Of a stretch of DNA of 64,000 nt, positions 47,568-64,000 are shown piece by piece (position 1 is the first letter of the stretch; every line of letters begins with the position of its first letter). The notes under the pieces are model-generated. The model searched no databases. It worked only from the letters and a program-made list of their open reading frames with translations, and was not told where the DNA came from. The DNA is from an uncultured archaeon. GTDB lineage: Archaea > Thermoproteota > Bathyarchaeia > 40CM-2-53-6 > CALIRQ01. Position numbers and translations under genes: made by a program. The stretch is taken from assembly GCA_938042195.1 (NCBI GenBank), contig CALIRQ010000009.1, positions 72,262 to 136,261 on the forward strand. The letters are read 5' to 3'.

Positions 47568-49616
47568 TCATATCAAGGCCCTCTTGTACTGACCGGGCTT
47601 CGGCGAGTATATTATCCCCTCCTTAACCAGCTGGTTCAGTACAGAGGCCACTTCCGCCTCGCTCATGCCATATTGGCTCGCGAGCGTTCCCTTCAGCCTT
47701 TCCTCCTCCGCCGCCCCGTACTCCTTCTCCTCCTTGGCTATCTCCCCCATGATCGCCTGCATCTTATCCCTCAGGCTCTTGGGCTTGCCGGTCATTATGA
47801 CGTCGATATCGATCTTACCGGTCGCAACGTCGATCCCGACGTGCTGTAGGGAGATCGTCATTAACCTTATAGCGGCCTTAGCGTCCTCGGAGGTGACCTT
47901 GTCCCTGAGGAAGCACCTGGCCCTAGCCTCGGATATCCTGATCAGGGCCTCTAGCTGCCTCGGGGTTATGGCGATCGGGGAATCGGAGGCGCCTGAGGTC
48001 GCCCTCATCTTGAGGTAGAAGTCCTTCAATTCCCTTATGGCCTCATCGGTCAGGGTGGGCGTGATCCTCTTCGCGTAGCTTATGTACTTCCTCAGGATCT
48101 CGGGCGGCAATGGGGAGACCTCGGGCATGGGGGTGGCCCTGATCTGATGGGTCCGAAGTATGTGGTCCGACATCTTCCTATCGAGTTCTTCGTCGGGCAT
48201 ATCCCTGAAGACGAATATGAGGTCGAACCTGGATAGTATGGTTATGGGGAGGTTTATGTTCTCGCTAACGTTCCTATAGGGATCGTATCTGCCCAGCGCC
48301 GGGTTAGCGGCGGCGAGCACGGAAGTCCTGGCGTTAAGCGTGGCGACGATGCCCCCCTTGGCCACTGAAACGGTTTGCTGCTCCATCGCTTCATGTATGG
48401 CTACCCTATCCTCCGGCCTCATCTTGTCTATCTCGTCTATCGAGCAGACCCCCTTATCCGCCAATACCAAGGCCCCGGCTTCGAGGGCCATCCCGCCGGA
48501 TTTCTCCCTTATAACGGCCGCCGTCAAGCCGGCTGCGGTGGATCCCCTGCCGCTCGTATACAATCCCCTAGGGGCGACCCTGGCGACGTATTGCAGGAGC
48601 GCGCTCTTGGCAGTTCCTGGGTCCCCGACCAGCAATATGTTCATATCACCCCGAAGGTTTATGCCATCAGGGAGCTCCTTCCTGACGCCGCCGTGGAGGA
48701 GGTACAATATGGCCTCCTTCACATCCTCATATCCATAGATCGATGGCGCTATGGACATCTTCAGCCTATTCAGGATCCACGGATCCTTCGAGAGGCCCTT
48801 AAGGTATCTCTCATCCTCCGGCGTTATCTCGAGGATCTCCGCCTCCCTGCCGGATACGTCGACGTAGTTGGCATCGAGGTAGAGCTCGAAGGTCCTGAGC
48901 CCTCCCCTCCTCCCCGCCATCGTTTGCTGCGCCCTCACTATGCCGGTTATCGACGCCCTATCGCCAGGCCTTGCCGCATCGACCAAATCGTCCCTAAGGG
49001 TCACGTCTATGGACCTTGGGAGCTGGCCGGGTGGGAGCTCCTCCGGCTTCTCTTGGGCGCGTATCTCCTGCGAATCTATGAAGCTCGACTCCTTCTCGTC
49101 GAAATCGAATTGCCTCGCCTTGCAATTGGCACAGAAGAGCGGGACCCTCATGAGCGGCCCCTTCTGCTCGACGAGGGTTATCTCGTTGCACCTCCTGCAC
49201 CTGAAGGCCGCCTTGACGACAAGCGGCTGTACCGGGGTCGCCCTTACGATTATGGCATCGATCATCACCAATTTCCCGATGTGATCGGCTCTTATCCTCC
49301 TGAGCGACAGCCTCTCGGGCAAGCCCCTGAACCTGACGAAGAACTCCCCGACCTGCTCCGCGTATTCGGGATCCTCGATCCTCATCTGCTCCAAGATGGA
49401 TGCATTGGCGTACTTCAGGGCCTCGTCCGGGTTGTTGACGATCTCCTTCGCCAGCTCGGGGTCGAAGGCCATTAGGTCCTCGAAGTCGACGATCAGTGAT
49501 TTGGAGCCCGTGAGGGCCATTTGGGACAGCCTCCTCCTGTACTTTTGCTCCTCGATCTCGGTCCTGAAGCCCCTCAGGAATTCCCTGAAGCTCTCTTGGA
49601 GCTCCGCCGTGCTCAT
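47568..49616 (-). CDS. mcm: Replicative helicase MCM
   Basis: 682 aa with a Zn finger (CRRCNE...CANCK), Walker A GDPGTAKS, Walker B IDEIDKM, an Arg finger SRFD and a C-terminal wH. Confidence 0.95.
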   Translation of the reverse strand: MSTAELQESFREFLRGFRTEIEEQKYRRRLSQMALTGSKSLIVDFEDLMAFDPELAKEIVNNPDEALKYANASILEQMRIEDPEYAEQVGEFFVRFRGLPERLSLRRIRADHIGKLVMIDAIIVRATPVQPLVVKAAFRCRRCNEITLVEQKGPLMRVPLFCANCKARQFDFDEKESSFIDSQEIRAQEKPEELPPGQLPRSIDVTLRDDLVDAARPGDRASITGIVRAQQTMAGRRGGLRTFELYLDANYVDVSGREAEILEITPEDERYLKGLSKDPWILNRLKMSIAPSIYGYEDVKEAILYLLHGGVRKELPDGINLRGDMNILLVGDPGTAKSALLQYVARVAPRGLYTSGRGSTAAGLTAAVIREKSGGMALEAGALVLADKGVCSIDEIDKMRPEDRVAIHEAMEQQTVSVAKGGIVATLNARTSVLAAANPALGRYDPYRNVSENINLPITILSRFDLIFVFRDMPDEELDRKMSDHILRTHQIRATPMPEVSPLPPEILRKYISYAKRITPTLTDEAIRELKDFYLKMRATSGASDSPIAITPRQLEALIRISEARARCFLRDKVTSEDAKAAIRLMTISLQHVGIDVATGKIDIDVIMTGKPKSLRDKMQAIMGEIAKEEKEYGAAEEERLKGTLASQYGMSEAEVASVLNQLVKEGIIYSPKPGQYKRALI

Positions 49617-50164
49617 CGGGCATCCCCCTCAAGTGCCGCGAAGCCCTTCCAAGCCATTATCACGGATCGCACGCCCTCCAACAACAACCTCTCCTCCGGC
49701 GTGAGGTTCTTAAGCGCCTCCTCCGATTCGGCGCCGGCGGAGGCTATCGATAGGATCTTCCGGATCCTGCAGTTCAATATCTCCTCGAACAATCCCATGG
49801 CCTTCTCAAGCTCCATCAGCTTGGAGCCGTCCGCCTTGGAAGCGGCCCTCAAGTTCGATAGGTACTCCTTCATCTTGAAATAGAAATCCTTTCCTACGGC
49901 CGATATCTGCCTAGTCGCCGGGATCGTCTCCCTCCAATGGATCTTCGAGAGCTGGATCAGGTCCATCCTCGCGGAATCGGCCGGCTTCGCCAATCCGGCC
50001 TCGGAGAGCTTCCGAGAGATCCAATATAGCACCTCAATCTCCGCCCCGGCGCTTGCCTCCAGATCTCCCCCGCAGACCCTGAGCTTGACGGGCTTGAGGA
50101 GGCGCATTTTGATCGGAGAGTTCTCGAACTCGATATGTATATCCCCGAAGCTCATGCCGCCCAA
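49613..50164 (-). CDS. gins23: GINS complex subunit (Gins23-like, B-domain then A-domain order)
   Basis: 183 aa, translationally coupled upstream of mcm as in Sulfolobus. The N-terminal part is beta-rich and the C-terminal part is helical with CRIRKIL. Confidence 0.55.
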   Translation of the reverse strand: MGGMSFGDIHIEFENSPIKMRLLKPVKLRVCGGDLEASAGAEIEVLYWISRKLSEAGLAKPADSARMDLIQLSKIHWRETIPATRQISAVGKDFYFKMKEYLSNLRAASKADGSKLMELEKAMGLFEEILNCRIRKILSIASAGAESEEALKNLTPEERLLLEGVRSVIMAWKGFAALEGDAR

Positions 50165-50620
50165 GGACCCCTCGCCAGAATCGCTTATGGCGAATGGATT
50201 ACTTTACCCTTACCCCAGCCGGCGGGCCGGCCCAGGGGTCGGCGGGATCGGATGCGCCTTAAGCGATATAACGCCGTAGCCCCCTATAGGGGGGTGGTCG
50301 CAAATGGGCCGTCTTGAAATCTCGAATGAAATCAAAAGAAATCAAATGAATCGAATCCAGGCCGAAAGGGGCCCATTTTGGGCCCCATCTCGGCGAAAGG
50401 GGCTCGAATAATCGAGGGAAATCAAGCGCCAAAATCAGGGGATGCGGAAGAAAGCCTGCCGCGGCAGGCCGTACAACCGTACGACTGGGGCGGAGGAAAT
50501 CCTCGCCCCTTCGCCGAAAGCTCAATTTGGGAAAGAATGAGGCGTATTATGATTTTTTCGACCTATTTAAACGAAAGTTTTTAAAGCAATAATTCCATAA
50601 CCTTTGAATTAGGGTGTCAA
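50165..50620. promoter_or_regulatory. Divergent promoter / structured regulatory intergenic region (gins-mcm versus gdhA)
   Basis: 456 nt with perfect palindromes CCCCCTATAGGGGGG, GGGGCCCATTTTGGGCCCC and GCCTGCCGCGGCAGGC, five GAAATC repeats, and an AT-rich TATA-like tract tttaaacgaaagtttttaaag about 30 nt before the gdhA start. Confidence 0.4.
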
Positions 50621-51868
50621 TTGAGCGGAAGGGAGTTTTACCGGGATACGCTGGGGAAGATAGATCGCTCGGCCGAGAAGCTTGGGCTCGATAAGGGCGT
50701 AAGGGAGATATTGAGGTATCCCCGCAGGGTTATCGAGGTTTACCTCCCGGTCAGGATGGACGATGGGTCCCTCAAGGTGTTTTGGGGATGCCGAGTTCAG
50801 CATAACTCCGCCAGGGGCCCCTATAAGGGCGGGATAAGGTATCACGAGAGCACAGATCTAGAGGAGGTCAAGGCCCTCGCGGCGCTGATGACGTTCAAAT
50901 CCGCCGTCGCCGATATACCGTTCGGCGGGGCGAAGGGCGGGGTGGCCTGCAACCCAAAGGCCCTCTCGAGGGGGGAGCTGGAGAGGATAACGAGGCGCTA
51001 TACGGCGGCGCTGGCGAACGACATTGGCCCCTACACCGACATCCCGGCTCCAGATGTGAACACGAATCCCCAAACGATGGCTTGGATCGTCGATACCTAT
51101 AGCCAACTCAAGGGGAGGAAGGTCCCGGAGGTTGTGACCGGGAAGCCGATCAGCATAGGGGGATCCCAAGGGAGGGAGGAGGCCACGGGAAGGGGGGTGG
51201 CGATATGCGCCGAGGAAGCGATGAAGTACAAGGGGCTGGATCCCCAATCGGTAACGATCGCCCTACAGGGCTTTGGGAACGTCGGCACCCATGCGGCCCT
51301 GGCGCTCTCGGAGCTGGGCTGTAAGATAATCGCGGTCAGCGATTCGAAGGGTGGCGTTTACGATTCCGAGGGCCTCCCGATCAAGGACTTGATCGAGCAT
51401 AAGCGAAGGACCGGCTCCGTCGTCGGCTTCCGAAACGGCTCCGAGATCGGGAGCGAGGCCGTTTTGGAGGTGGAGTGCGATGTCCTCATACCGGCCGCCC
51501 TCCAGAACGCCATAACAAAGGAGAACGCGAATAGGATAAGGGCCAAGGTCATGGTAGAGGGGGCCAACGGGCCGACGACGACCGAGGCCGATAAGATCTT
51601 GGAGAGAAGGGGCGTATTCGTCGTCCCGGATATATTGGCAAACGCCGGCGGGGTCATAGTCAGCTATTTCGAATGGACGCAGAACCTAAGGAGGGAATAT
51701 TGGGACTTGGAGGAGGTCAGGGGAAAGCTCGAGAAGAGGCTCAAATGCCAATTCAAAAGGGTCTTGGAGACATCAGAGGAGTTCAAGGTCCCGATGAAGG
51801 AGGGGGCCTTCATACTTGGCATTAAGAGGGTCGCCGAGGCGCTGGAGACGCTAGGCCTCTTCCCATGA
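50621..51868 (+). CDS. gdhA: Glutamate dehydrogenase
   Basis: 415 aa with the GGxKGG active-site region (PFGGAKGGV) and a Rossmann GFGNVG. Confidence 0.95.
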   Translation: MSGREFYRDTLGKIDRSAEKLGLDKGVREILRYPRRVIEVYLPVRMDDGSLKVFWGCRVQHNSARGPYKGGIRYHESTDLEEVKALAALMTFKSAVADIPFGGAKGGVACNPKALSRGELERITRRYTAALANDIGPYTDIPAPDVNTNPQTMAWIVDTYSQLKGRKVPEVVTGKPISIGGSQGREEATGRGVAICAEEAMKYKGLDPQSVTIALQGFGNVGTHAALALSELGCKIIAVSDSKGGVYDSEGLPIKDLIEHKRRTGSVVGFRNGSEIGSEAVLEVECDVLIPAALQNAITKENANRIRAKVMVEGANGPTTTEADKILERRGVFVVPDILANAGGVIVSYFEWTQNLRREYWDLEEVRGKLEKRLKCQFKRVLETSEEFKVPMKEGAFILGIKRVAEALETLGLFP

Positions 51869-51987
51869 GCGGGCGCCATCGGCCGAGCTGCCCCGAGGAT
51901 CCCCCAAGGGGCCCAATTGAAATATCGTCGCGGCGGCCCAAAGCCTTATCTTATTATGCCCCATGAGCGGGCCTTAGGGCGATCTAA

Positions 51988-52962
51988 ATGGCCGAGGAGA
52001 GGCATATGATGTGGACGGAGAAGTATAGGCCGAGGACCTTGGATGAGATAAGGGATCAAAGCGAGATCGTTTCGAGGCTAAAGAAGTTCGTAGAGGAGAG
52101 GAGCATGCCGCATTGCCTCTTCGCCGGCCCGCCCGGGACCGGCAAGACGACGGCCGCGCTCTGCTTGGCCCATGACCTCTTCGGCGAGAGGTTCATGGAC
52201 CTGTTCATGGAGCTGAACGCGAGCGATGAGAGGGGGATAGACGTTATCAGGACGACCGTGAAGGAGTTCGCGAGGGCCGCAGCGATCAGCGAGGCCCCTT
52301 TCAAGATATTGGTCCTCGATGAGGCTGATAACATGACGGGTGATGCACAGCAGGCCCTCAGGCGGACGATGGAGAGATATACGGACACGTGCAGGTTCAT
52401 CCTGTGCTGCAATTACTCAAGCAAGATAATCGAGCCGATACAATCCCGCTGCGCCATCTTCCGGTTCTCCCCATTGGGGGAGGGAGACGTAAAGGACTTC
52501 TTGGGGTGGATAGCCAAAAACGAGGGCGTTGATATAACGGATGGGGGCTTGGGGGCGATCGCGAGGATCTCCGAGGGGGATTTGAGGAGGGCGATAAATC
52601 TCCTCCAAGCCGCCTCGTCGCTAAAGGGGGAGATCGACGAGGATTCCATCCATCGCCTCGCCGGCCGGATAGAGCCCAGATATGCGAAGGAGATATTGGA
52701 GTTGGCCATAAAGGGGAACTTCTCCGAATCCAGGAAGAGGCTGAGGAGCCTCCTCCTAGAGAAGGGCCTCTCGCCCTTGGATATCATAAGGCAGATCCAC
52801 GGCGAGATATTCCAGATCGAGCTCCAGGAGAGGGACAAGCTCCTCTTGGCCGAGATGCTCGGGGAAGCGGATTTCAGGATATCCCAGGGGGGGGACCCCG
52901 AGGTCCAGATGAGCGCCTTCTTGGCGAAGCTGGCTTCGCTATCCTCGAGGCCCAGGGGCTGA
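51988..52962 (+). CDS. rfcS: Replication factor C small subunit
   Basis: 324 aa with KYRP, Walker A GPPGTGKT, DEADNMT and an SRC motif. No intein is present. Confidence 0.95.
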   Translation: MAEERHMMWTEKYRPRTLDEIRDQSEIVSRLKKFVEERSMPHCLFAGPPGTGKTTAALCLAHDLFGERFMDLFMELNASDERGIDVIRTTVKEFARAAAISEAPFKILVLDEADNMTGDAQQALRRTMERYTDTCRFILCCNYSSKIIEPIQSRCAIFRFSPLGEGDVKDFLGWIAKNEGVDITDGGLGAIARISEGDLRRAINLLQAASSLKGEIDEDSIHRLAGRIEPRYAKEILELAIKGNFSESRKRLRSLLLEKGLSPLDIIRQIHGEIFQIELQERDKLLLAEMLGEADFRISQGGDPEVQMSAFLAKLASLSSRPRG

Positions 52963-52966
52963 AGCC

Positions 52967-54229
52967 ATGCGGCCCGCCGAGCAATGGGAGGAGAAGTATA
53001 GGCCATCCAGCATCTCGGAGATCGTTGGGAACAAGGAGGCAATCGGGCGGCTGGTCGAATGGGTTAGGAAATGGGGGAAGGACCCAAAGGCCAAGAGGGG
53101 CGCTTTGATATATGGCCCGCCAGGCAGCGGCAAGACCGTCGCGGTCGAGGCGCTGGCGAGGGACCTCGGCTTGGACCTCATAGAGGTGAACGCGAGCGAC
53201 GATCGATCCAAGGGGAAGCTCGAGAGGATGATCGGGGGCGCCGCCAGCGGGATGAGCATACTCGGCAAGGGGAAAATATTATTCCTAGACGAGGTCGATG
53301 GAATGAGCCCATCCATGGATTCGGGCGCAATGGATTACATCGATGAGCTCCTATCCAAGGCCAATTACCCGGTGATCCTCGCCGCCAATAACGCTTGGGA
53401 TCCGAAACTCGGGAGGATAAGGCAAAAGTGCGAGCTGATCGAGTTCAAGAGGATCGGGGTAAGGGAGGCGGTCCCGTTCCTGAAGAGGGTAGCCGAGGAG
53501 GAGGGCATAAGGGCCGATCCGGAGGCCTTGAAGCTCTTGGCGGAGCGGAACAGGGGCGATCTGAGGGCCATGCTGAAGGATTTGCAAACGCTCTCCCATC
53601 CCGGCGGGGCGTTGACGAAGGAGGATGTCCAAGGGGCATCCCGAAGGGATCGAACCGATTTGATATTCAACGTCCTCAAGAACGTATTCTCGGCGAAGAG
53701 CTGCCAATCCGCGAAGATCGCCATCAATGAGGCCGAGGTGGATCACGAGATGCTTTTCGAGTGGATCTACGAGAACGCCCCGCTGTGGCTCTCGGACCCG
53801 GGCGACCTGGCCAATGGTATGGAGGCCCTAGCCAAGGCGGATCTGCTCTTCAACATAGCCAAGAGGGAGCAGAATTGGGGCCTGATCTCCTACGCCATCG
53901 ATTTAATGACCGCTGGGGTCGCCATGGCCAAGGAGAGGTCGAGGGCCGGATGGGTTCCGATGAGGTTCCCCGAGAGGATAGCCCTGATGGCCAAGACCAG
54001 ATCGGAGAGGGCCATTAGGCAAAGGGTCCTCGGGAGGATCGCGAGGCGATGCCACCTCTCGAGGGCATCTGCCAGCGCGAGCGTGTTGCCCTATGTCCTC
54101 GAGATAGCCAGGAACGATTCGAAGGCCTTCAAGGGCCTCGCGGAATGGTTCGGGTTCGATGGCGAAGAGATCGAGTTCCTGAAGTCCCTTTGCGGATCCC
54201 CCGCGCGCCGGGGGTCCAAGGAGGCCTAG
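52967..54229 (+). CDS. rfcL: Replication factor C large subunit
   Basis: 420 aa with KYRP, GPPGSGKT and a DEVD box, immediately downstream of rfcS. Confidence 0.9.
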   Translation: MRPAEQWEEKYRPSSISEIVGNKEAIGRLVEWVRKWGKDPKAKRGALIYGPPGSGKTVAVEALARDLGLDLIEVNASDDRSKGKLERMIGGAASGMSILGKGKILFLDEVDGMSPSMDSGAMDYIDELLSKANYPVILAANNAWDPKLGRIRQKCELIEFKRIGVREAVPFLKRVAEEEGIRADPEALKLLAERNRGDLRAMLKDLQTLSHPGGALTKEDVQGASRRDRTDLIFNVLKNVFSAKSCQSAKIAINEAEVDHEMLFEWIYENAPLWLSDPGDLANGMEALAKADLLFNIAKREQNWGLISYAIDLMTAGVAMAKERSRAGWVPMRFPERIALMAKTRSERAIRQRVLGRIARRCHLSRASASASVLPYVLEIARNDSKAFKGLAEWFGFDGEEIEFLKSLCGSPARRGSKEA

Positions 54230-54741
54230 CCCCTCCTCAAATGCTCCACTATATGCGCCGCTTCCGGTATTATCAGGTTCTCCACGGCCAACTCGACGGC
54301 CTCGGGCGATCCGGGGAGGCAGAATATGACGGATTCTCCTCGGATGCCCGCGGCGGCCCTCGTGAGGAGGGCCGGACTGCCTATCCTCTCGAAGCTGATG
54401 TGCCTGAAGAGCTCCCCGAAGCCGGGTAGGTCCTTCTCGAATAGCTTCGATACGGCCTCTATGGTCACGTCGCCCTTCCCTATGCCCGTCCCCCCAGTAA
54501 TTATGACGACGTCGGCCCCCTTGAGGGCCTCCAATACCGCCCCCAATATGGCCGACTCCTCATCGGGGACCATTGCCCTCATGGTTAGCTCGTGGCCCCT
54601 CCTCCCCATAAGTCTCGCGATCGTTTCGCCGGAGATATCGGGCTCGCCGGAGCCCTTGCTTCGTGAAGTGCTGCATGTTATGACGGCGAATTTCACGCTC
54701 TTCGGCGCCCTCCCCTTATGCGCCTCGGAGGTCTCGCTCAA
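54226..54741 (-). CDS. moaB: Molybdenum cofactor biosynthesis protein MoaB/MogA family
   Basis: 171 aa with GGTGIGKGD and an MoaB/MogA fold signature. Confidence 0.85.
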   Translation of the reverse strand: MSETSEAHKGRAPKSVKFAVITCSTSRSKGSGEPDISGETIARLMGRRGHELTMRAMVPDEESAILGAVLEALKGADVVIITGGTGIGKGDVTIEAVSKLFEKDLPGFGELFRHISFERIGSPALLTRAAAGIRGESVIFCLPGSPEAVELAVENLIIPEAAHIVEHLRRG

Positions 54742-55196
54742 ACGGCCTCCCCCTTCCTCTTCCTCTCCACCCTTATCGCCCTTATCTCCGTGAACGGATA
54801 TTGTCCTTCCTCGTCCTTCTCGTACTTCTTAACCATGTCCCAAACGGTCAGGAGGAACGCGGAAACTGCGGCCAGCGCCTCCATCTCAACGCCCGTCTTG
54901 GACGCCGCCCTCACCCTTGCCCTGACTTCGATGGAATCCTCGTTGAGGCGATGCTCAAGTTGGACGTGTGCGATTTGGATTGGGTGGCAAAGCGGTATCA
55001 TCTGGCTCGCGTTCTTGGCAGCCATTATCGCGGCTATCTCCGCCGCGTATATGGGATCCCCCTTCTCGATCCGCTCGCCCCTTATCAGCTCGATCGTCTC
55101 CCTCCTCATTCGGATCTCGCCGAACGCCACCGCCTCCCTCACTACGTCGCCCTTCCCCGAGATATCGACCATCCTCACCCTGCTCATAGCGCTCAT
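54738..55196 (-). CDS. moaC: Cyclic pyranopterin monophosphate synthase MoaC
   Basis: 152 aa with the conserved MIPLCHP motif. Confidence 0.9.
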   Translation of the reverse strand: MSAMSRVRMVDISGKGDVVREAVAFGEIRMRRETIELIRGERIEKGDPIYAAEIAAIMAAKNASQMIPLCHPIQIAHVQLEHRLNEDSIEVRARVRAASKTGVEMEALAAVSAFLLTVWDMVKKYEKDEEGQYPFTEIRAIRVERKRKGEAV

Positions 55197-55213
55197 ATCC
55201 CCCTCGCGGCCGT

Positions 55214-56356
55214 CTACGAATGCTGGTAATTTATGACTTTATCCCACCTCAGGCCCCTGAGCCCGATGAGGGTCGTCCTCCCCCTGATGCCCGCCCCCGA
55301 GGGCCTGAGCGAGAGCAGGCCAGCGATGGAGAGCCTCCTCGCATATTTCCATAGCTGGGTATGCCGCCTCGGCGCGAGCCCGCGGAGCCCGCAAAGGGCC
55401 AAATACTCTCCCTCAGCATCCCCCATCCTAACCTCTTGGGAGGGGCCCCTCCCCAAAGCCCTCGCCACCGCCTCCAAGAACAGCCTCTCGTGATCGGATA
55501 GATCGCCGATCAAGCATGGGTCCGGCGAGGTCCGAGCTTCATGCAAAGCCCTTTCCGCATGTCCCGCGCCAACCGAGCCAGCCCCTTCGCGCTCGGCCAG
55601 CGCAGCGGCGATCCTCAGGGCCCTGATCGCGAAGCCCGCGTCCCCGAACTCGGAGGAGGCGTCGGCGATCAGATCCAGCGCTTCCCCCTCGATGGCCCCC
55701 TCCCTCAGCGCCATATTAGCCCTTTCGGCCAAGATCGCCTCGAGCTCGGCCTTCGAATATCCCCGAAGCCTCAGGATACCCCTCCTCAGCGCGCTGAGGG
55801 CGCTCCTATCGATCCCCGCCAAGCGGTTCCAATCCCCCAAGGAGAGGATGAGCCCGAGGTCCCGGATGCCAAAAGCCTCCCCGGGCCTGGAGAGAATGTA
55901 GATCGGATCGGCCCCCTCGGCCCAAAGGATCGCTTCCGCATCGTCGAGCGCTAGGATCGGGAAGATGCCGCGGTTCGGGATCTTCCCAATAAGGCCTAGG
56001 AGCTCCTTGGAGGAGCGGCCCCTGAGGCCATCCCCAGCCCCGAAGTAGGTCAAGGCCACTTCGAGGATCTTGAACAGCCTCCCCCTGGCCCTCCAGCAGC
56101 TCACGTAAGCGCATTTTATGGCCCTCCCGCGCTTCAAGCCCTCCGCCTCCATAATCTGCCCGAACCGTTTCAAAAGGGCGGTCTTCCCGCTCCCCCGCGG
56201 CCCGACGAGGACCATCAGCGGGGAGCCGCCGCGCTCAAGGGCGGGCGATAGGAAATGTTGCGCCATATCCCGCAGCTCGCGATCCCTGCCGATGAGATTC
56301 CCCGGAACGTATTCCGGCGAGAGGGGGAACGGATCCCTCAGGATCCCTTCGCCCAT
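55214..56356 (-). CDS. orc1: Orc1/Cdc6 replication initiator
   Basis: The start is placed at MGEGILRDPF (ATG 56356). Walker A is GPRGSGKT and Walker B is LALDDAE, with a C-terminal winged helix. The 116 codons upstream in the tracked ORF are Gly/Arg-rich junk that overlaps the next gene. Confidence 0.85.
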   Translation of the reverse strand: MGEGILRDPFPLSPEYVPGNLIGRDRELRDMAQHFLSPALERGGSPLMVLVGPRGSGKTALLKRFGQIMEAEGLKRGRAIKCAYVSCWRARGRLFKILEVALTYFGAGDGLRGRSSKELLGLIGKIPNRGIFPILALDDAEAILWAEGADPIYILSRPGEAFGIRDLGLILSLGDWNRLAGIDRSALSALRRGILRLRGYSKAELEAILAERANMALREGAIEGEALDLIADASSEFGDAGFAIRALRIAAALAEREGAGSVGAGHAERALHEARTSPDPCLIGDLSDHERLFLEAVARALGRGPSQEVRMGDAEGEYLALCGLRGLAPRRHTQLWKYARRLSIAGLLSLRPSGAGIRGRTTLIGLRGLRWDKVINYQHS

Positions 56357-57393
56357 CGGCCCCCGCCCCGCGATGCCGCCTCGTATAGCTCTATAACCTC
56401 GTATATGGAGTCGCGCGGCGGAGATCGGATCTCGATCAAGTCCCCGCGCGCATCGGTCAACTTGACCCCGAAGGACCCGTCCCTCATCTCTCCTATCTTG
56501 GTCGCCATGATCCCCTTCCCCCTGAGCGATCCCAAAAGCCCCTCCTCGGCCTTCGGATCGACCGAGATCAGCAGGCTCCCGGAGCCGAGCAATTTCATCG
56601 GATCGATGCCCAAGGATGCGCAAATGGCCTTGGTCTCCTCCGCGATCGGCACCCTCGCGGCCTCTATAAGGGCTCCCAGCCCCGATGCGGCCGCCATCTC
56701 CCAAACCCCGCCCAATATCCCGCCCTCTGTCGGGTCGTGGAGCGCATGGACCCCCTCGACCCTCGCGGCCACTAGCGCCTCCTCGACGACGCTTATCCTC
56801 CGGAGGAACCCCTTGGAGCGCTCGATGAGGTCCCCAGGCACCTCGAGGATATCGGGATAGCTGATCGAGATCACGGCCGTGCCCTCTATCCCGGCCGTCT
56901 TGGTCATGATTATCCTATCCCCGGGCTTGGCGTTCCTCGTTACCAAATATTTATCCTTGGGGCATTCCCCGGCCATCATTCCAACCACGATCGGGGCCCT
57001 TATGCCCGGCGCCACCTCCGTATGGCCGCCTACGACGGCCACCCCGAGCTCCTTGGCGGCCCGATCCACTTGGCCCATTATCTCCCTCAATTCGCCCTCG
57101 CCGGACCCCTCCGGCAGGAGGACGGCGCATAGGAACCATTTCGGGATCGCGCCCCTTGTCGCGACATCGTTTGCGTTTATGTGGACCGATAACCATCCGA
57201 GGTCCCTGCTGGCGGCAGTTATCGGATCCATGGCCAAGACCAGCAGCGCATCCCCCATATCTATGACGGCCGCGTCCTCGCCTATACCCGGGCCTAATAG
57301 GACCCTTGGATCCGGCCTCCCGGTGAAGCCGAAGACCAGCTCCAGCAGCCTCTCGGGGGGCACCTTCCCGGTTTTGAATCCGCCCAACCCCAA
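56338..57393 (-). CDS. AIR synthase-related (PurM-like superfamily) protein
   Basis: 351 aa with GEDAAVI and a VGGHTE PurM-fold signature. It lacks the C-terminal PRIC of HypE. Confidence 0.7.
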   Translation of the reverse strand: MGLGGFKTGKVPPERLLELVFGFTGRPDPRVLLGPGIGEDAAVIDMGDALLVLAMDPITAASRDLGWLSVHINANDVATRGAIPKWFLCAVLLPEGSGEGELREIMGQVDRAAKELGVAVVGGHTEVAPGIRAPIVVGMMAGECPKDKYLVTRNAKPGDRIIMTKTAGIEGTAVISISYPDILEVPGDLIERSKGFLRRISVVEEALVAARVEGVHALHDPTEGGILGGVWEMAAASGLGALIEAARVPIAEETKAICASLGIDPMKLLGSGSLLISVDPKAEEGLLGSLRGKGIMATKIGEMRDGSFGVKLTDARGDLIEIRSPPRDSIYEVIELYEAASRGGGRWAKGS

Positions 57394-57720
57394 GCCACTT
57401 TTCCGATGGATCCGGAGTCCAGCTTAAAAAGGCTGGCCCGTCTGATTCGCTAGCGCGATGACCATATGGAGCGCCCATGACCGTTTAGCGAATGCTGCCG
57501 GCAGGGGAGCGCTTCGGCAAGAACCCCTCCTGGCCCCGGACGGTTACAACTATCGGCTCCACCAGGCCGAGGCGGAGCCCGGAAGGCATTGGTTCATCCA
57601 GAGGGTGAGGGGGGAAGTGAAGGCGGGGCTGATGAAAAAGATGATAATTTTATGTTATTTAACACAAAAATCAGGAGGGTACGTTTTGCTGGGTTATTGC
57701 ATGGGCGAGGTCGGCCATCC
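57394..57720. ncRNA. Candidate structured ncRNA (SRP-RNA-like motif); unverified
   Basis: GC-rich 330-nt intergenic segment with many helices: GUCCAGC-UUAAAAAG-GCUGGC, a GCUUCGGC UUCG tetraloop hairpin and CUGCCGGCAGG. It also has CCAGGCC...CCCGGAAGG, reminiscent of the SRP RNA helix-8 GGAA region. No ORF of coding quality is present. Confidence 0.25.
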
Positions 57721-57953
57721 CATGCCTCGCCATGCTTCGCCTCTTGGCAATCCCCGTTAAGGCCCATCTCGGGACGCCGATCACCTGCTACCGATCTTTT
57801 CAAATGCATCCAGAATGGATATAAGAGACCATTGCTCAAAAGTGAGTCCCTCAGACCGGCGCTGAGGAAAGCCCAACCTCCCAATCCTTAAGTTGACGAC
57901 CTTCATAACTATGGGAAAAGCTTAAGTCCAGCATCAACTCGAGGAGAAATCCG

Positions 57954-58572
57954 ATGAATAATATTAATGAGCTGCTCCAAAATATCTGTCTTGATTCACT
58001 AAATGCTGGGTGGTCAAGTGAAAGAGAAAAGCTAAATCCTATTGCCGAATTTATGGAAGAAGGTTGTGGAAGCATTAAAATCGACCTCCCAATTAAATTT
58101 TATAAAAGCAAGAAACATGACGTGCCTACCAATATTATCTTAAACATAATAGCATTGCATCATAGGGATTACTTTAGAGCAATTGCGGTATTGTGTTCAT
58201 GTGCAAGGCTGTAAGCTGGGGCTTGAGGCATTTCTTAAGAAAATTAAGGAACTTGATAGTGGATTAATAAGGATAGTTAAAGGAAATTTACGCAGACTTA
58301 TCCGCCATATTGAAAGAAGGGACCTTAAGCGCCGAGATAGGATTTCCATCTGGAAATCATGGCGGAGTGGCGTAATGCTTTCAGCAGAAAAATCGGCCAT
58401 TAGACGTAAGTGCACTCCAGTCATTAAAAAAGTAAAGGTCGAACTGGTTAAAGACGAAATAGGCAAAATGCAAATAAGAGATCTTGAGGCTACACGTCCA
58501 TTAGGTTTATTTGGTTTAATGCTTCAAGAAAGTCCAATAAGTTCGGCGAATGTCACAAAAGAAAGCCTTTAG
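57954..58572 (+). pseudogene. Frameshifted or two-piece ORF in a low-GC island; HEPN-like Rx4H motif (possible Abi/toxin-like gene)
   Basis: Two ORFs (57954-58214 and 58183-58572) overlap by 32 nt in adjacent frames. Both are Lys/Ile/Asn-rich and match the local approximately 38% GC. The second piece contains RRLIRHIERRD. Confidence 0.35.
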
Positions 58573-58631
58573 AAGCTGTCTTAAGTTGTTTCCACAAACG
58601 CTTATATTTTCCCACTTTTGTACGAGGCCTC

Positions 58632-58717
58632 GTGGGCTTTATCGCTAGCCTCTCGACGAAATCGGCCAAGGAGACCGTGGAAGGAACTATGCTGTGGGCT
58701 TTATCGCTAGCCTCTCG
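58632..58717. repeat. CRISPR-like mini-array: two identical 24-bp direct repeats around a 38-bp spacer
   Basis: GTGGGCTTTATCGCTAGCCTCTCG occurs at 58632-58655 and 58694-58717 with a 62-bp period. An AT-rich leader-like 60 bp lies upstream, and a perfect palindrome ATCGGGCCGGCCCGAT (58722-58737) lies downstream. Confidence 0.4.
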
Positions 58718-60215
58718 GGGCATCGGGCCGGCCCGATTCCAACAGCGCGGCGTTGAGCCGCCCGATGAAGCCGGTGAAGCGTTCCTCAGGAACCCTGGCG
58801 CCGGCCGATGCCCTCGCATAGACAGCCGCCTTCCCTAGGGGAACGGCATATCGATGACGTATGCCACAAGCCCTCGATCCTGATGCACTCCCCGATCGAT
58901 CGGATTCAGCTCCTCTTCCCTCCTGGCGCTCTCCAGGGCCGATTCGATGAGCCCCGCGTAGGCGCTGGGCGACTCTGGCGGCGAGGTGGGAAACTACGCC
59001 CCACTTGAAATCGTAATCCCGCTTCCTACCCTCGATCCCTTGGACCAATACGCTCGTTTCGAAGTATGCGGACCTCTTATCCCAATCGCAAAGCGATCGG
59101 CCACGGCGCCGAGGATCGCCACTGGCCCCCTCCCCTGGAAGAATCGATACGCCAGCTCCGAGGCCGATGAGCGGATATCGTGGACGACCCTAGCGTGGAT
59201 CTCGTCATCTGATAACCCCTGGGAAGGGGATAGGGATCGATATAGACCGCATCGCCCTTCTCGCCAAGCCTCGAATCTCATCCAAGGCAGCCGATAGCTC
59301 GCTCGGGCGCGGATATATCGCATATTATGACCGAATCGCCCCTCATCCGCGCTTCTCAAATCCCCAGGAAGGCCCACCGGATGCGTGAAGAGGACCGAGG
59401 CGCCGGGGTTGGCGGCCAGCGCGAGCGCCTCGGCGCATAGCCCATCAGTCGCCGTGCGTGAACATCCTCGCGGCCATATCGAAAACCCGTTTTGGATCCC
59501 GAGGATCCGATGCGCCGAGAGATAGATAAGGATTCCACGAGCATGGAGGTGGGGCGCACGGCGCAAAGGTTCGCGGGGGCCGATGCCCGGGCCGGGTTCA
59601 GGGCGATTCTATATCCTTGAACTTCGTCGTCCCACGCAGGCTGAACCTTATTGTGAACCTGCGGGGGGATTCGCTGTCCGGGGAGCGGTAGCTCCCCTCC
59701 GCCTCCCATAGATCGCCAACTCGGCGGATCCTCCTGAACTCCACGCCGTAGCCCTTCGGGCAAACCCTTTGGATCAACCTGATGGACCTCTCCCTGACCT
59801 CCCGCTCGGTTATCCCCGGCCTTTCGAAGCGCAGGATCCCTCCACCCCGATCGGCCGTTCCGCGGCCTTGCCTTGTAAACCTTTCCAAAATGGATGCCCC
59901 ATCGGCGCGATCGCGCAATGCCCTTTCTCGCCATTCGCTCGCGCCTGAGGAGGATGTAGGAGATGGCCAGCCAGATCGAGGATCCAATAGCTGAAGCCTC
60001 TGGCCAAATAGCTTGAGGGGGGTCCGCCTGGCCCCCGCATCGGCCCCTTCGGATGGCGCGGCCGAGGCCTATGATCGATTGAAAGCCGTTCATAGACCTT
60101 AAGCATAAAATAGTGCGGTTGATATCGAAAGACCATCACCGAGTGCTCATCGACCCTGGGGCTCCCATGGGCGGCCATTGCCATCAGAGCCGCGCTCGCG
60201 AGCACGGTGGCGTAA

Positions 60216-60307
60216 TGCGGCCGCCGGGATTCGAACCCGGGTCACTGGCGCTCCGCCCGATCAAAGTTGGCAGGCCAGCGTCTTGGACCAGGCTGGACTA
60301 CGGCCGC
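60216..60307 (-). tRNA. tRNA-Gly(GCC) with a 17-18 nt intron adjacent to the anticodon loop
   Basis: Reverse complement: GCGGCCG-UA-GUCC...AGAC-G-CUGGC-CUGCCA[intron ACUUUGAUCGGGCGGAGC]-GCCAG-UGAC-CCGGG-UUCGAAU-CCCGG-CGGCCGC-A. CCA is not encoded. Confidence 0.85.
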
Positions 60308-60578
60308 ATCGAGGGGATTTCACTGCGCTCTTGGCTTTAAAATTTTGTTGGTGCCGAGGGTGTGACTTCCACCGGCTCATCGCCGGCTTTGAACACACGA
60401 CGCCCCGGTATCGGATCCGGGCGGATCTTCAGCCGGGTGCTCTCCATCGCCCCTGTGGGGGTCAGGCTGAGCTCTCGAGGGCCCTCGTCGCCGGCCTACC
60501 TCGGCTTCCCTCGGCGACCGCTTAGGTCGAATCGAGGGGGAAATAAAAAATCTTCCGCCATGGTCGCCCATGCCCGGC

Positions 60579-60956
60579 CTATGGGGGCTCAGCCTTGTTC
60601 ATCTCGATCATTATCGTATCGTTTATGCTGGGCTTGCCCAGCCTTTCGTATTCCTCCTCCGTTATCACCATATCCACCTTCGCATCCCATTGCCCCCCGA
60701 GCGAGATGGGGCCGCCGATGACGAGCCCGCCCGGGAAGGCCGCCTCGAAGGCCTGTTGGATCCTGGCGGCTATCTCCTCAGCCACCCTTTGCTCCTCCGT
60801 CCTCCCGATCGGCTCTATCCTGGCCTTCAGGCCCCTTCTGATGAGCACCATCCTGACCATGCCGCCCCCCAAGCCCATGACTTGGTGGACCCTCAGCTCC
60901 ATCAGCAACGCGGCGAACACCCGGAATGGCTTGGGAGGGGCCCTATTAAAATCCAC
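60579..60956 (-). CDS. Hypothetical small protein in a Mo-cofactor gene neighbourhood
   Basis: 125 aa with coding-like composition and no recognisable motif. Confidence 0.4.
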   Translation of the reverse strand: MDFNRAPPKPFRVFAALLMELRVHQVMGLGGGMVRMVLIRRGLKARIEPIGRTEEQRVAEEIAARIQQAFEAAFPGGLVIGGPISLGGQWDAKVDMVITEEEYERLGKPSINDTIMIEMNKAEPP

Positions 60957-61826
60957 CTAACCGCTGGCCGCCCTCCCTCGGCCAATCACCTCTATCCTGA
61001 TCGATTCATCCCCCCTTATCGAAACGCCCTTCAGCTTCGACACCATCCCGAGCACCGAGGCCCTTATGATTTCGGAGGCGAACCTCTGGATCGGGACCTC
61101 GGCGCCGCCGACGATTATCTCGGCCCTCAGGGAAGGCTTGGACCTGATCACCTCGCAATCCCCCGCCCCCGCCATGCCCTCCGAGATGGCCCTCGCCATT
61201 CGATCGCAGGAGCCCCATTCGCACCTTCCGCAATCCAAGCCCGGCAGCATGGCCCTCGCGGCCAACCTAGCCCTCTCCCCCGAGATGAAAGCGATCGCCC
61301 CCTCTACCAAGCCATTGAGAGCATCGGCCGAGCCGGGCCCCGGGGAATACACGCCTATCACCTTACCCTTGGCCCTGGCCGAATAATATTCGGCGTCCTC
61401 CGCTCTCGCGGCGCAGATTATCTTCCCAACGCCCTCGTCCTCCAGGACCTTCGCGGAGAACCCCTCCAACACCATCGAATCGGCCCCAATGGCCGATGCT
61501 AGCGCCTCCAGCGAGGCGATGTCCAACTCCCTGTTCAAGATGATCGCCGTTTGGCCCTCCGAGGCGGCCATCGAGATCTCGGCCCCGGCTTCGGAATGCC
61601 TCCAAGTATCCGTCCCGGCCCTATCGATCGAGAAGCCCTTCTCCGCGATGTGCTTAACGGCCGCCGGCCTATGGCCGCGCCTCCTGAGTTCGCGCAAAAG
61701 GGCCTCGACGAGCGACGTCTTCCCGCTCTTCTTCCGCCCGATCACGGCCACCTTTGGCAACCGGGCGGGTCCTCCGAGGCCCATCGGCGATCCCTTGCCA
61801 TTGGGCGCATCGGCTTTGGGCATCAG
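60957..61826 (-). CDS. mobB: MobB (molybdopterin-guanine dinucleotide biosynthesis protein B) fused to a C-terminal Cys-rich domain
   Basis: P-loop AVIGRKKSGKTSLVEAL...AVKH, and a C-terminal CGRCEWGSCDRMA...DC. The start is placed at the internal MPKADAPNG to avoid overlapping hisC. Confidence 0.7.
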   Translation of the reverse strand: MMPKADAPNGKGSPMGLGGPARLPKVAVIGRKKSGKTSLVEALLRELRRRGHRPAAVKHIAEKGFSIDRAGTDTWRHSEAGAEISMAASEGQTAIILNRELDIASLEALASAIGADSMVLEGFSAKVLEDEGVGKIICAARAEDAEYYSARAKGKVIGVYSPGPGSADALNGLVEGAIAFISGERARLAARAMLPGLDCGRCEWGSCDRMARAISEGMAGAGDCEVIRSKPSLRAEIIVGGAEVPIQRFASEIIRASVLGMVSKLKGVSIRGDESIRIEVIGRGRAASG

Positions 61827-62938
61827 GATCCACCGCCGGCTCCGATCCTGCGCATCGCCGCGCCGAGCTCCCTCAGGAAGGCCTCGTTCTCCTCCCCCCT
61901 GCCTATCGTCACCCTGGCGTGCTTGGGGAGGCCCCAAGGCCCCATATAGCGCACCACGATGCCCGCCCTTAGAAGCTCATCGCAGATCGCCTTGGCCTTG
62001 GGCCCCAAATGGACCAAGAGGAAGTTGGCCGCGCTGGGGACATACTCGACGCCCAGCTCCTCGAGGCCTCGATACAATTGGGATTTGCCAGCCTCCGTCA
62101 TCTCCCTGACCCAAGCCAGATATTCCTCGTCGTCCAACGCCGCCAAGGCGGCCGCTTGGGCCAGCGAGTTGACGTTGAAGGGCTCCCTCACCTTGTTCAT
62201 CAGCCCTATGACCTCCGGAGACGAAACGGCGTAGCCGATCCTCAGGCCGGCTAGGCCGTGGATCTTAGAGAAGGTCCTCGCCGTTATGACGTTCCCCCTC
62301 GATTGGTATTTGAGCGAATCTGGGTAATCCCCGCCCTCCCTGTAGGCGTATTCGAAATAGGCCTCGTCGAAGAAGACGAGGCAATCGCTCGGGACGGAAT
62401 CGAGGAACTCCTCCACCTCCTCATTCGAAACATATGTCCCGGTGGGGTTGTTGGGATTGGAGATGAATATCAAGCGCGTCCTCGGCCCTATCCGGGAGGC
62501 CATCGCCCTCAGATCGTACCTATAGTTCCTCAGCGGGACTTCCTTCACCCCTAGCCCCTCCGCCTTCGCCGCTATCCTGTATATCAAGAAGGTCGGCGCG
62601 GCCGTTAGGATCTCGTCGCCCTTATCGGCGAAGGCCCTTATGGCCATCACTATCAATTCGTCCGATCCGTTTCCAAAGATCAGCCTCTCCTCATCGAAGC
62701 CGAGCTTCTCAGAGAGGCGCTTCCTTAGATAGTAGCAACCGCCCTCTGGATACCTGTTGACGTTGGGCAGGGCCTCCCTGAGGGCCTCCAGGGCCCTCGG
62801 AGATGGCCCGAAGGGGTTCTCATTCGAGGCCAGCTTCACGACCTCCTTTAGGCCGAGCTCCCTCTTGACCTCCTCTATTGGCTTCCCGGGCTTGTAAACC
62901 TCCAGATCCCTCAGCTCCGGCTTTACCCTGAGCCCCAA
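61823..62938 (-). CDS. hisC: Histidinol-phosphate/aromatic aminotransferase (class II, HisC family)
   Basis: LASNENPFGPSP, a PLP-lysine region and YPEGG. A TTG start is proposed at 62938. The track's upstream extension to 63100 is not convincing. Confidence 0.8.
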   Translation of the reverse strand: MGLRVKPELRDLEVYKPGKPIEEVKRELGLKEVVKLASNENPFGPSPRALEALREALPNVNRYPEGGCYYLRKRLSEKLGFDEERLIFGNGSDELIVMAIRAFADKGDEILTAAPTFLIYRIAAKAEGLGVKEVPLRNYRYDLRAMASRIGPRTRLIFISNPNNPTGTYVSNEEVEEFLDSVPSDCLVFFDEAYFEYAYREGGDYPDSLKYQSRGNVITARTFSKIHGLAGLRIGYAVSSPEVIGLMNKVREPFNVNSLAQAAALAALDDEEYLAWVREMTEAGKSQLYRGLEELGVEYVPSAANFLLVHLGPKAKAICDELLRAGIVVRYMGPWGLPKHARVTIGRGEENEAFLRELGAAMRRIGAGGGS

Positions 62939-63503
62939 GCTCCAGCACGCTCCGGCGCACCCCACCGGGCCGGCAGGGCTTAAAAAACCATCCCCTAGGA
63001 GGGCGAAAGGGGGACCGAACTTCCCCGAGCTCGTCCTCGAAAAGCTCCTCACCCTGTTGAGCTCCTGAAGCCCCTTTTCCTTGGCCACTTGACCGAGCAT
63101 CGATGCCTGATGCTCCCATGTCCTTCAGGGCCCCGATCTTTGCCTCCTTGACGATGCCTATCTCCTCCAAGGGCTTCGATATCGCCCTTTTTGCCAGCCC
63201 TGCATCATTAGGCAAGGATGGCTTATCCTCCCCAATCGAACTCTGCTATGCTATGTGCGTATCGAATTAAGCCATGAGCATATAGCGCCTCAATCGAAGC
63301 CGGCCCTTGATCGCCTTGGGATCCGTCCCATCGAGCTCGCAATAAGGGGCCCAAGGCCCCAGGGCAGACCGCGGTCATCGGATAGGATTTAGCGGCTAGT
63401 TATCGAACTGCCTCCTCGCCTTCCCATCCCAGAGAAGGCGGGGCTTATTTGGGCCTCAACCCACTGAATAATGGGCTCGTAAAGGGGATTCGCTTAAATA
63501 ATT

Positions 63504-63581
63504 TGGTGGACCGGCGGGGATTTGAACCCCGGACCTTCCGCATGCCAAGCGGACGATCATACCAGGCTGATCTACCGGCCC
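63504..63581 (-). tRNA. tRNA-Ala(GGC), intronless, CCA encoded
   Basis: Reverse complement: GGGCCGG-UA-GAUC-AGCCUGGUAU-GAUC-G-UCCGC-UUGGCAU-GCGGA-AGGUC-CGGGG-UUCAAAU-CCCCG-CCGGUCC-A-CCA, with the G3:U70 Ala identity pair. Confidence 0.9.
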
Positions 63582-63726
63582 CGGCATAGTCGAATCCGGA
63601 TCGCCTTTATAAATATCTCACCTGCCGAGCCGGAGTCCATGGGGAATCGTTCCCAGCCGCGGCCTCAAGCTTTATCATTGGAAGGATGCGATTATCCCAT
63701 GGGGGAAAAGAGGGGCTGCGTAGATC

Positions 63727-63954
63727 ATGAGGAAGGAGGAGCTGCTGATATTGACCATTTTGCTTTTTGCCATGCTGGTCCTATCGGGCACCATACCGAT
63801 CGGTCCCGCGGCTCCGAGGCCGCAGCAAACGATCATCCCGGCCCAGACCGCCGTGATGACCGTCACCCCCGTGACGGCAATCCTCCCGATCAACTCCACG
63901 GCCGTCCCAGAGATAAGGAGCACCCCGGCCCCTCCCTCGACCCTAAGCGGCTGA
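63727..63954 (+). CDS. Possible small secreted/TM protein (weak)
   Basis: 75 aa with an N-terminal hydrophobic helix followed by a Pro/Thr-rich tail. It competes with an antisense ORF, so support is low. Confidence 0.2.
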   Translation: MRKEELLILTILLFAMLVLSGTIPIGPAAPRPQQTIIPAQTAVMTVTPVTAILPINSTAVPEIRSTPAPPSTLSG

Positions 63955-64000
63955 GGGTTGGGGGCCCAGCCCAATGGGCCGCTAATTAATGCGTAGCCTC

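Follow-up and report, generated by a model that had tools for sequence, protein, structure and literature searches.

We analysed a window of 64,000 nucleotides (64 kb) from contig CALIRQ010000009.1 of an uncultured Bathyarchaeia archaeon (assembly GCA_938042195.1), and in it a locus in which an AT-rich island (57880–58630) with a split open reading frame (ORF) is followed by two copies of a 24-nt direct repeat on either side of a 38-nt insert (58632–58717). The original prediction, made from the sequence alone, had read the island as horizontally acquired DNA, the split ORF as a possible HEPN ribonuclease toxin or Abi gene, and the repeats as a minimal CRISPR-like array, the two together recalling CreTA-type modules. 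The 751-bp island had a guanine-plus-cytosine (GC) content of 38.5%, against 58.1% for the whole window, and was the lowest of all 750-bp windows, about 5 standard deviations under the mean (mean 0.580, standard deviation 0.038); the lowest 750-bp window outside the island had a GC fraction of 0.473. The flanks showed a local GC content of 61–64%, in agreement with the predicted value of about 60%, and the predicted drop in GC proved to be the extreme of the window. The window as a whole represents core chromosome of a Bathyarchaeia archaeon, and its genes are densely packed throughout except at 57394–60216, where the only coding signal apart from the island, as judged by codon-position GC periodicity, was a small conserved gene at about 59598–59888 on the minus strand. 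The island ORF was the sole coding signal in about 2.2 kb (57394–59597) amid tightly packed core genes.

No counterpart of the island was found in related Bathyarchaeia loci. A search for terminal inverted or direct repeats at its bounds gave only 8- and 9-mers of the kind expected by chance, and an element integrated at a tRNA attachment (att) site was rejected, as there was neither an integrase nor a repeat of att length. When a direct tRNA-derived repeat was sought, the only match to the tRNA region was a 12-mer inside the ORF (58367–58378) that was identical to 60207–60218, a segment that overlaps the 3′ edge of the adjacent tRNA gene by 3 nt; the match was near the chance level (E approximately 0.03). 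The AT-rich tail of the island (58573–58631, plus strand) contained T-runs resembling archaeal terminators and a TATA-like sequence, TTATATTT, at 58602–58609. The foreign origin proposed for the island was upheld by its composition, by its absence from relatives and by a homologous island in a different archaeal phylum, described below, and the island is very likely a horizontally acquired, frameshifted orphan gene. It resembles ordinary acquired ORFan islands and pseudogenes in its deviant GC content, its absence from relatives, its disabling frameshift and its position close to a tRNA gene, where synteny breaks; it differs from them in that it is unusually small, consisting of a single gene, and in that a different archaeal phylum also holds this rare family in the form of an AT-rich single-gene island.

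The two overlapping ORFs in adjacent frames lay exactly where they had been described, ORF1 at 57954–58214 (86 aa) and ORF2 at 58183–58572 (129 aa). Because two open frames as long as these appeared on one strand in only 3 of 2000 shuffles of the island, real coding was supported. A Shine-Dalgarno-like GAGGAG, read from the sequence, was located at 57941–57946 on the plus strand, 7 nt upstream of the ATG at 57954, and no such signal was found upstream of ORF2. A word-indexed search of 5.8 billion proteins gave no relative of the ORF, and phmmer, run exhaustively against 1.84 billion cluster representatives, gave a sole credible homologue, P0001 (196 aa, E 4.7e-6), a hypothetical protein of a Thermoplasmata metagenome-assembled genome (MAG). 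The alignment with P0001 spanned the ORF1/ORF2 junction, in frame 0 up to NIIALHH and in frame +1 from ITLEQLRYCVHVQGCKL, which aligned with NLIALCNKLNLAELRRLCHIQGCKL of P0001, and removal of one G at 58165–58167 restored the exact spacing of P0001. According to this alignment, the GGG run at 58165–58167 on the plus strand holds an extra G that shifts the frame (CAT CAT AGG, G, ATT ACT TTA GAG). On this sequence comparison, ORF1 and ORF2 are one decaying acquired gene, predicted to have been inactivated by a 1-nt insertion in the GGG run; the resulting orphan pseudogene of about 205 codons (57954–58572, plus strand) is read in frame 0 over 57954–58166 and in the +1 frame over 58168–58572. Among the readings originally offered for the split, a decayed gene was therefore supported by the homologue that runs across the junction, and a programmed slip was not, because the homologue reads the site in one frame and is shifted elsewhere; there was also no slippery motif at CAT AGG GAT. 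A two-gene toxin-antitoxin operon composed of ORF1 and ORF2 was rejected as well, since the homologue spans the junction and ORF2 has no ribosome-binding signal.

The repaired protein was basic (isoelectric point 9.8) and arginine-rich, with conserved HxQGCKL and PLGL blocks, and showed 35% identity end to end with the repaired homologue. The locus of the homologue (L081, 1440–2140) was also an AT-rich single-gene island, of about 700 bp with approximately 30% GC in a contig of approximately 58% GC, located between two unrelated host genes, a flavodoxin-like gene and a cation-ATPase gene. The gene in L081 was frameshifted near 1945–1950, a site other than that in the window gene, and in a second contig (L082), 98.9% identical to L081, the same product including the frameshift was called. 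There were no conserved noncoding ends between the window island and the L081 island, and no further family members were found among 5.8 billion proteins by word index or in IMG/VR, phages or plasmids. As judged from these two members, the family is a rare orphan family that would have entered its two hosts in separate and recent acquisitions, each from an AT-rich source, and it appears to be decaying in both. P0001 as called had a spurious GC-rich N-terminus that overlapped a neighbouring gene on the opposite strand. Residues 3–41 of the repaired ORF showed a weak likeness (40% over 39 aa) to the repeated unit of P0002, a protein of 1279 aa with the appearance of a tape-measure protein of phage tails; the five repeats of P0002 have probably inflated the E-value (2e-4).

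The assignment to HEPN or Abi toxins had been based on the string RRLIRH, an Rx4H arrangement. This string was there, running from R113 to H118 in the repaired protein, and it aligned with KRLSRV in P0001, so that the histidine was replaced by valine. In composition-matched shuffles, Rx4H occurred by chance in 35% and Rx4-6H in 72%. Comparison of ORF1, ORF2 and the repaired proteins with Pfam, PADLOC and NCBIfam gave no match at E<=10, and the proposed check of the repaired product against HEPN and Abi profile families was accordingly negative. PHROGs gave one unannotated family only (E 0.28, with ORF2 alone), and a profile search of PDB sequences gave only noise at E=0.19. An AlphaFold2 model from the two-sequence alignment was helical, with low confidence (mean predicted local distance difference test score 35, predicted template modelling score 0.19). 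The protein thus shares with HEPN ribonuclease toxins and Abi proteins a single Rx4H string and a basic, helical character, the latter in a low-confidence model, and differs from them in having no profile similarity, a motif histidine that is not conserved in the homologue and a motif at the chance level. By the motif and profile tests applied, the repaired protein is predicted not to be a HEPN protein; the motif stood and its reading as HEPN was not supported.

Downstream of the island tail, the first copy of the 24-nt direct repeat, GTGGGCTTTATCGCTAGCCTCTCG, occupied 58632–58655 on the plus strand and was exact, being found also in the independent contig L083. It was followed by a unique 38-nt insert, or spacer, with 53% GC at 58656–58693, and by the second copy at 58694–58717, identical to the first; both lay on the plus strand. 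The lengths and the spacer sequence were identical to those originally reported, and both repeats were present in the second assembly. The GC content of the 24-nt repeat was like that of the host and not like that of the island. No further repeat copies were found in the window at <=3 mismatches, and none in shuffles. In local alignment, the 38-nt insert scored at the chance level both against the 38 nt after repeat 2 and against the sequence before repeat 1, and it was unrelated to both flanks. Since the spacer was unlike the downstream sequence, a tandem duplication of a 62-bp unit was ruled out, and with it the ordinary tandem duplication that had been named as the fallback explanation. The structure is a 24-bp target duplicated around an unrelated 38-bp insertion. 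Control loci totalling 1.17 Mb contained no other exact repeat pairs of at least 20 nt at a spacing of 45–95 nt than true tandem duplications or repeats inside a coding region, and the configuration was therefore considered unusual.

The repeat-spacer-repeat unit had no coding signal and no sign of a structured RNA, as the fold z-scores ranged from −1.7 to +1.9 and Rfam gave only tRNA. The 3′ end of TTATATTT was 22 nt upstream of repeat 1, a distance approximately equal to that of a TATA-like box upstream of the neighbouring tRNA gene (60216–60307). This spacing is suggestive of a putative promoter of the repeat unit, a function that we only infer. Two identical 24-nt repeats and one 38-nt spacer constitute the minimum possible CRISPR array, with a repeat length inside the range of 23–50 nt used to define such arrays, and the exact repeat-length duplication, the spacer-length insert and the otherwise unrelated flanks are the structural features by which a neo-CRISPR locus is recognized. 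The minimal CRISPR-like array that had been proposed thus fitted in its geometry and in its leader-like TATA box; no feature that would place it in a CRISPR family was found, as the window and the collections searched gave neither a matching repeat family nor a cas gene nor a protospacer.

The locus coincided with breaks in gene order. A 6.8-kb segment (50591–57414) with the genes for GDH, RFC-S, RFC-L, MoCF, MoaC, Cdc6 and an AIRS-like protein was inverted when set against the closest two Bathyarchaeia genomes, L001 and L002, in a comparison that also involved 49402–50397 and 57394–57455. Synteny with both genomes stopped at about 57455, and no inverted repeats were found flanking 50591–57414. 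Five more distant relatives (L084–L088) keep the order aminotransferase, MobB, small ORF, tRNA and 78-aa gene, and contained nothing like 57394–59597. In an independent Logan assembly of ERR9287632, contig L083 matched 58539–64000, both repeats included, with one mismatch (58588; 99.98% identity), and contig L089 from the same sample spanned exactly 50591–57414. The breaks in the assembly graph therefore fell on the evolutionary breakpoints, which suggests that the population is structurally heterogeneous at this locus; the sampled population may be polymorphic for an inversion. We regard the locus as a place in a Bathyarchaeia chromosome where foreign DNA has come to decay at the breakpoint of a rearrangement. 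As a separate observation, the 8-mer TCGCTAGC, which forms the core of the repeat, had only four copies in the 64 kb (57447–57454, 58642–58649, 58704–58711 and 6756–6763), and the copy at 57447–57454 was located at the synteny breakpoint beside the promoter of the AIRS-like gene (post-hoc p approximately 0.03), with dissimilar flanks.

A 24-nt repeat paired with a 38-nt spacer is typical of the short-repeat arrays of Thermoproteota, and to our knowledge spacer integration by Cas1-Cas2 is the sole well-established mechanism that systematically gives a duplication of this kind together with an insertion. Isolated CRISPR arrays were reportedly treated by Shmakov and colleagues in 2020. We tentatively attribute the repeat-spacer-repeat unit to integration of the Cas1-Cas2 type, either as a mini-array that was carried in or as an off-target event, an origin that we judge to fall a little short of probable. 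In such an event, a Cas1-Cas2-type complex would make staggered cuts one repeat length apart, a spacer-sized fragment would be inserted, and repair of the gaps would duplicate the 24-bp target. The outcome might be a one-spacer mini-array brought in with a mobile element, or else an off-target ‘neo-CRISPR’ integration beside the leader-like AT-rich tract with its TATA box.

Both outcomes have precedents. Type I-A and III-D systems have been reported in Bathyarchaeia, and mini-arrays are reported from viruses of Bathyarchaeia, one of them with two repeats and a single spacer (PMC10848311); the supplements of that study give no repeat sequences. Viruses of Sulfolobales carry mini-arrays of 1–2 spacers behind leaders with a transcription factor B recognition element (BRE) and a TATA box (PMC6858448). 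Compared with the mini-arrays of SPV1, SPV2 and Acidianus two-tailed virus (PMC6858448) and of Fuxivirus and Chiyouvirus of Bathyarchaeia (PMC10848311), the unit described here is alike in its one spacer, its two identical repeats, the lack of nearby cas genes, the association with foreign DNA and the AT-rich upstream tract with a TATA-like box, and its host class is one in which such arrays are known. In the viral mini-arrays, however, the repeat is that of the host CRISPR and the spacers target rival elements, whereas neither a matching array nor a protospacer was found here; furthermore, no viral hallmark gene was found at the locus, and the family of the adjoining gene was absent from IMG/VR. 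With regard to the second outcome, archaeal Cas1-Cas2 has been documented to integrate off-target at sites outside CRISPR, and it has been suggested that new arrays are seeded by such events (PMC6698737, PMC7054753), and neo-CRISPR loci formed by off-target spacer integration are attributed, in what these two papers cite of it, to Nivala et al. 2018. The unit is like these loci in the exact repeat-length duplication of a non-CRISPR sequence, the spacer-length insert and the adjoining leader-like tract, and unlike them in that no empty-site allele was found. As the repeat of a neo-CRISPR locus need not match a known family, this comparison fits the negative database searches. In its most far-reaching form, the off-target outcome would be the natural birth of a CRISPR locus, in which a Cas1-Cas2 complex of Bathyarchaeia put a 38-bp fragment into a 24-bp non-CRISPR site beside the AT-rich edge, with its TATA box, of newly acquired foreign DNA and so made a transcribable one-spacer array with a repeat of no known family; we consider this specific version unlikely.

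A series of results weighs against an origin in Cas1-Cas2 integration. The repeat was present in two copies only. Pfam scans found no cas gene in the 64-kb window, as had been stated originally for the window (about 45 ORFs), or in the 7.7 kb past its right end in L083. The exact 24-mer was absent from JGI metagenomes, from IMG/VR and from 596 Gb of representative genomes, a collection that does not contain the source genome, which is not a GTDB representative; paired 14-mer cores of the repeat were also absent from the genome, metagenome and viral collections, and no Rfam CRISPR-DR family matched at E<=1. A search of CRISPR repeat databases had been named as a check of the repeat, and these comparisons did not support it as a CRISPR repeat. 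The repeat had no significant hairpin, and by inspection there was no AUUGAAAG/C-type 3′ handle in either of its orientations. A search for a protospacer, likewise named as a check, gave none in the window; neither half of the spacer was found exactly in IMG/VR, and no blastn match in INPHARED phages or PLSDB lay under the spacer. The homologous island in L081 had no such repeats, and no CRISPR array was found in any relative or control locus examined. The negative results for the repeat weigh against a widespread canonical repeat, but they do not bear on off-target integration, because a pseudo-repeat need resemble nothing. Two further points concern the assembly and bear on the gene as well: the independent contigs break at 57414 and 58539, so that they cover neither the frameshift nor the island's left junction (57415–58538), and the gene would be intact if the extra G were an assembly error.

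The most serious rival is that the unit is not CRISPR-derived and represents a one-off duplication with filler, made by break repair or template switching at the breakpoint, in functionless and decaying noncoding DNA. We regard this as a real possibility, albeit a doubtful one. It accords with the finding that every CRISPR membership test applied beyond geometry was negative, with the position of the unit in a 2.2-kb gene-free stretch at a breakpoint of both synteny and assembly, and with the lack of conservation of the unit with the homologous island. What it leaves unaccounted for is the structure itself, as no common non-CRISPR mechanism is known to duplicate 24 bp exactly on either side of 38 bp of unrelated inserted sequence. 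The target duplications of transposons are much shorter than 24 bp, a tandem duplication of the form repeat-spacer-repeat-spacer was excluded above, and the pairs in the 1.17-Mb control were all of other kinds. Under this explanation, both the 24/38 pair of sizes and the distance to the TATA-like box would be coincidences.

The order of a gene, an AT-rich tract and direct repeats also resembles iteron replicons, and the locus could be what is left of a small replicon of the plasmid type or of a regulated cassette, in which a DNA-binding gene of the Rep or regulator type was followed by an AT-rich tract and two 24-bp iterons or operators about six helical turns apart. The basic protein, with an isoelectric point of 9.8 and an all-helical low-confidence model, and the perfect palindrome after repeat 2 would fit this arrangement. 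It is nevertheless improbable: there were only two copies, with unrelated sequence between them, the repeats were host-like in GC content, the protein matched no Rep, helix-turn-helix or plasmid family, no similarity to PLSDB plasmids or to phages was found, and the homologous island had no repeats.

An assembly artefact in part, either a mis-join of the 148-kb contig between 57414 and 58539 or an erroneous extra G, is slightly less credible still; it would make the left context of the island, or the split of its gene, spurious. In its favour, the same-sample Logan contigs end at 57414 and begin at 58539, the very points at which synteny with L001 and L002 breaks. On the other hand, the right junction, consisting of the island tail, the repeats, host DNA and the tRNA, was reproduced at 99.98%, and the homologue shows the same island architecture, with its frameshifted product called in two assemblies of approximately 99% identity. 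A GGG run is also short for an Illumina indel error.

An active or recent module, in which a HEPN or Abi toxin was coupled to, or controlled by, a CRISPR-like RNA with one spacer, as in CreTA or in an anti-virus mini-array, was largely refuted and is very improbable. In its favour, the gene for the basic protein adjoins the repeat unit, both are associated with foreign DNA and, more speculatively, an intact gene could be harmful given that both known copies are frameshifted. Against it, no HEPN, Abi or defence profile matched, the motif histidine was not conserved, the motif was at the chance level, the gene was broken, the homologous island had no repeats and the spacer had no nearby match of at least 11 nt. 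The spacer showed no match of at least 11 nt within about 2 kb and no 12-nt match anywhere in the window; the sole match close by was a 10-nt word of the spacer, AAATCGGCCA (58659–58668), which recurred inside the ORF at 58390–58399 and was near chance (p approximately 0.08). CreT toxins are small RNAs, and creA, with degenerate repeats, lies inside cas loci (PMC8501985, PMC9458426). CreTA is located in or next to a type I cas operon and has degenerate repeats, a small RNA toxin and a pseudo-spacer that partly matches the toxin promoter; the present unit shares with it a lone repeat-spacer-repeat beside a putative toxic gene and has none of these other features. The suggested CreTA-type module was therefore discarded: there was no cas operon, the repeats were identical and not degenerate, the neighbouring gene was a protein pseudogene, and no significant match between spacer and promoter was found. 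There was no evidence of present function of the repeat unit or of regulation of the pseudogene, and their common location in a 2.2-kb stretch free of genes is probably the only link between them.

Were the unit a true product of Cas1-Cas2, it would be a rare natural snapshot either of an orphan mini-array from a mobile element of Bathyarchaeia or of the de novo origin of an array, both of which are poorly documented outside Sulfolobales and experiments with E. coli. The broken gene and its homologue are the only two known members of a very rare protein family; that this family occurs in two GC-rich phyla of archaea from hot environments, each time as an AT-rich island with a single gene, hints at an unsampled pool of AT-rich mobile elements. 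For the present, the locus is mainly a cautionary example, in that a short motif (Rx4H) together with a two-copy repeat was insufficient for calling a toxin or CRISPR module. In our view it adds a new, unproven case to kinds already known, and its interest is modest unless a Cas1-Cas2 system with 24-nt repeats is present in the rest of the genome.

Pfam scans of about 45 ORFs of the window identified HypF, Lhr, SMC/ScpB, TBP, Hel308, MCM, GINS, both RFC subunits, Cdc6, MobB and ordinary metabolic genes, and no integrase or transposase. The AIRS-like gene (56338–57393, minus strand) showed 87 and 82% protein identity with genes of the Bathyarchaeia MAGs L001 and L002, respectively. To its right, the noncoding left flank of the island (57394–57879) was conserved with the nearest relative only at 57394–57455, the promoter region of the AIRS-like gene. 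On the other side, a perfect 16-bp palindrome, ATCGGGCCGGCCCGAT, was located at 58722–58737, 4 nt downstream of repeat 2, with no T-run after it. It lies in a GC-rich (62.8%), noncoding and lineage-specific stretch of 880 bp (58718–59597), which showed no codon-position GC periodicity, no Pfam match in six frames, no Rfam match and no similarity to related loci; no gene was called in its counterpart in L083. The tRNA gene at 60216–60307 on the minus strand contains an intron and was detected by Rfam at 54.8 bits, having been missed by ARAGORN. A sequence in L002 (1205–1335) resembled a further intron-containing tRNA and was missed by both Rfam and ARAGORN. In the intergenic region beside GINS-MCM (50164–50620), there were 10-bp-periodic repeats of the GAAATCAA type and short direct repeats, and a similar repeat-rich tract was observed in L002 (900–1000); the region, close to the replisome gene cluster, may have a regulatory role or be related to an origin.

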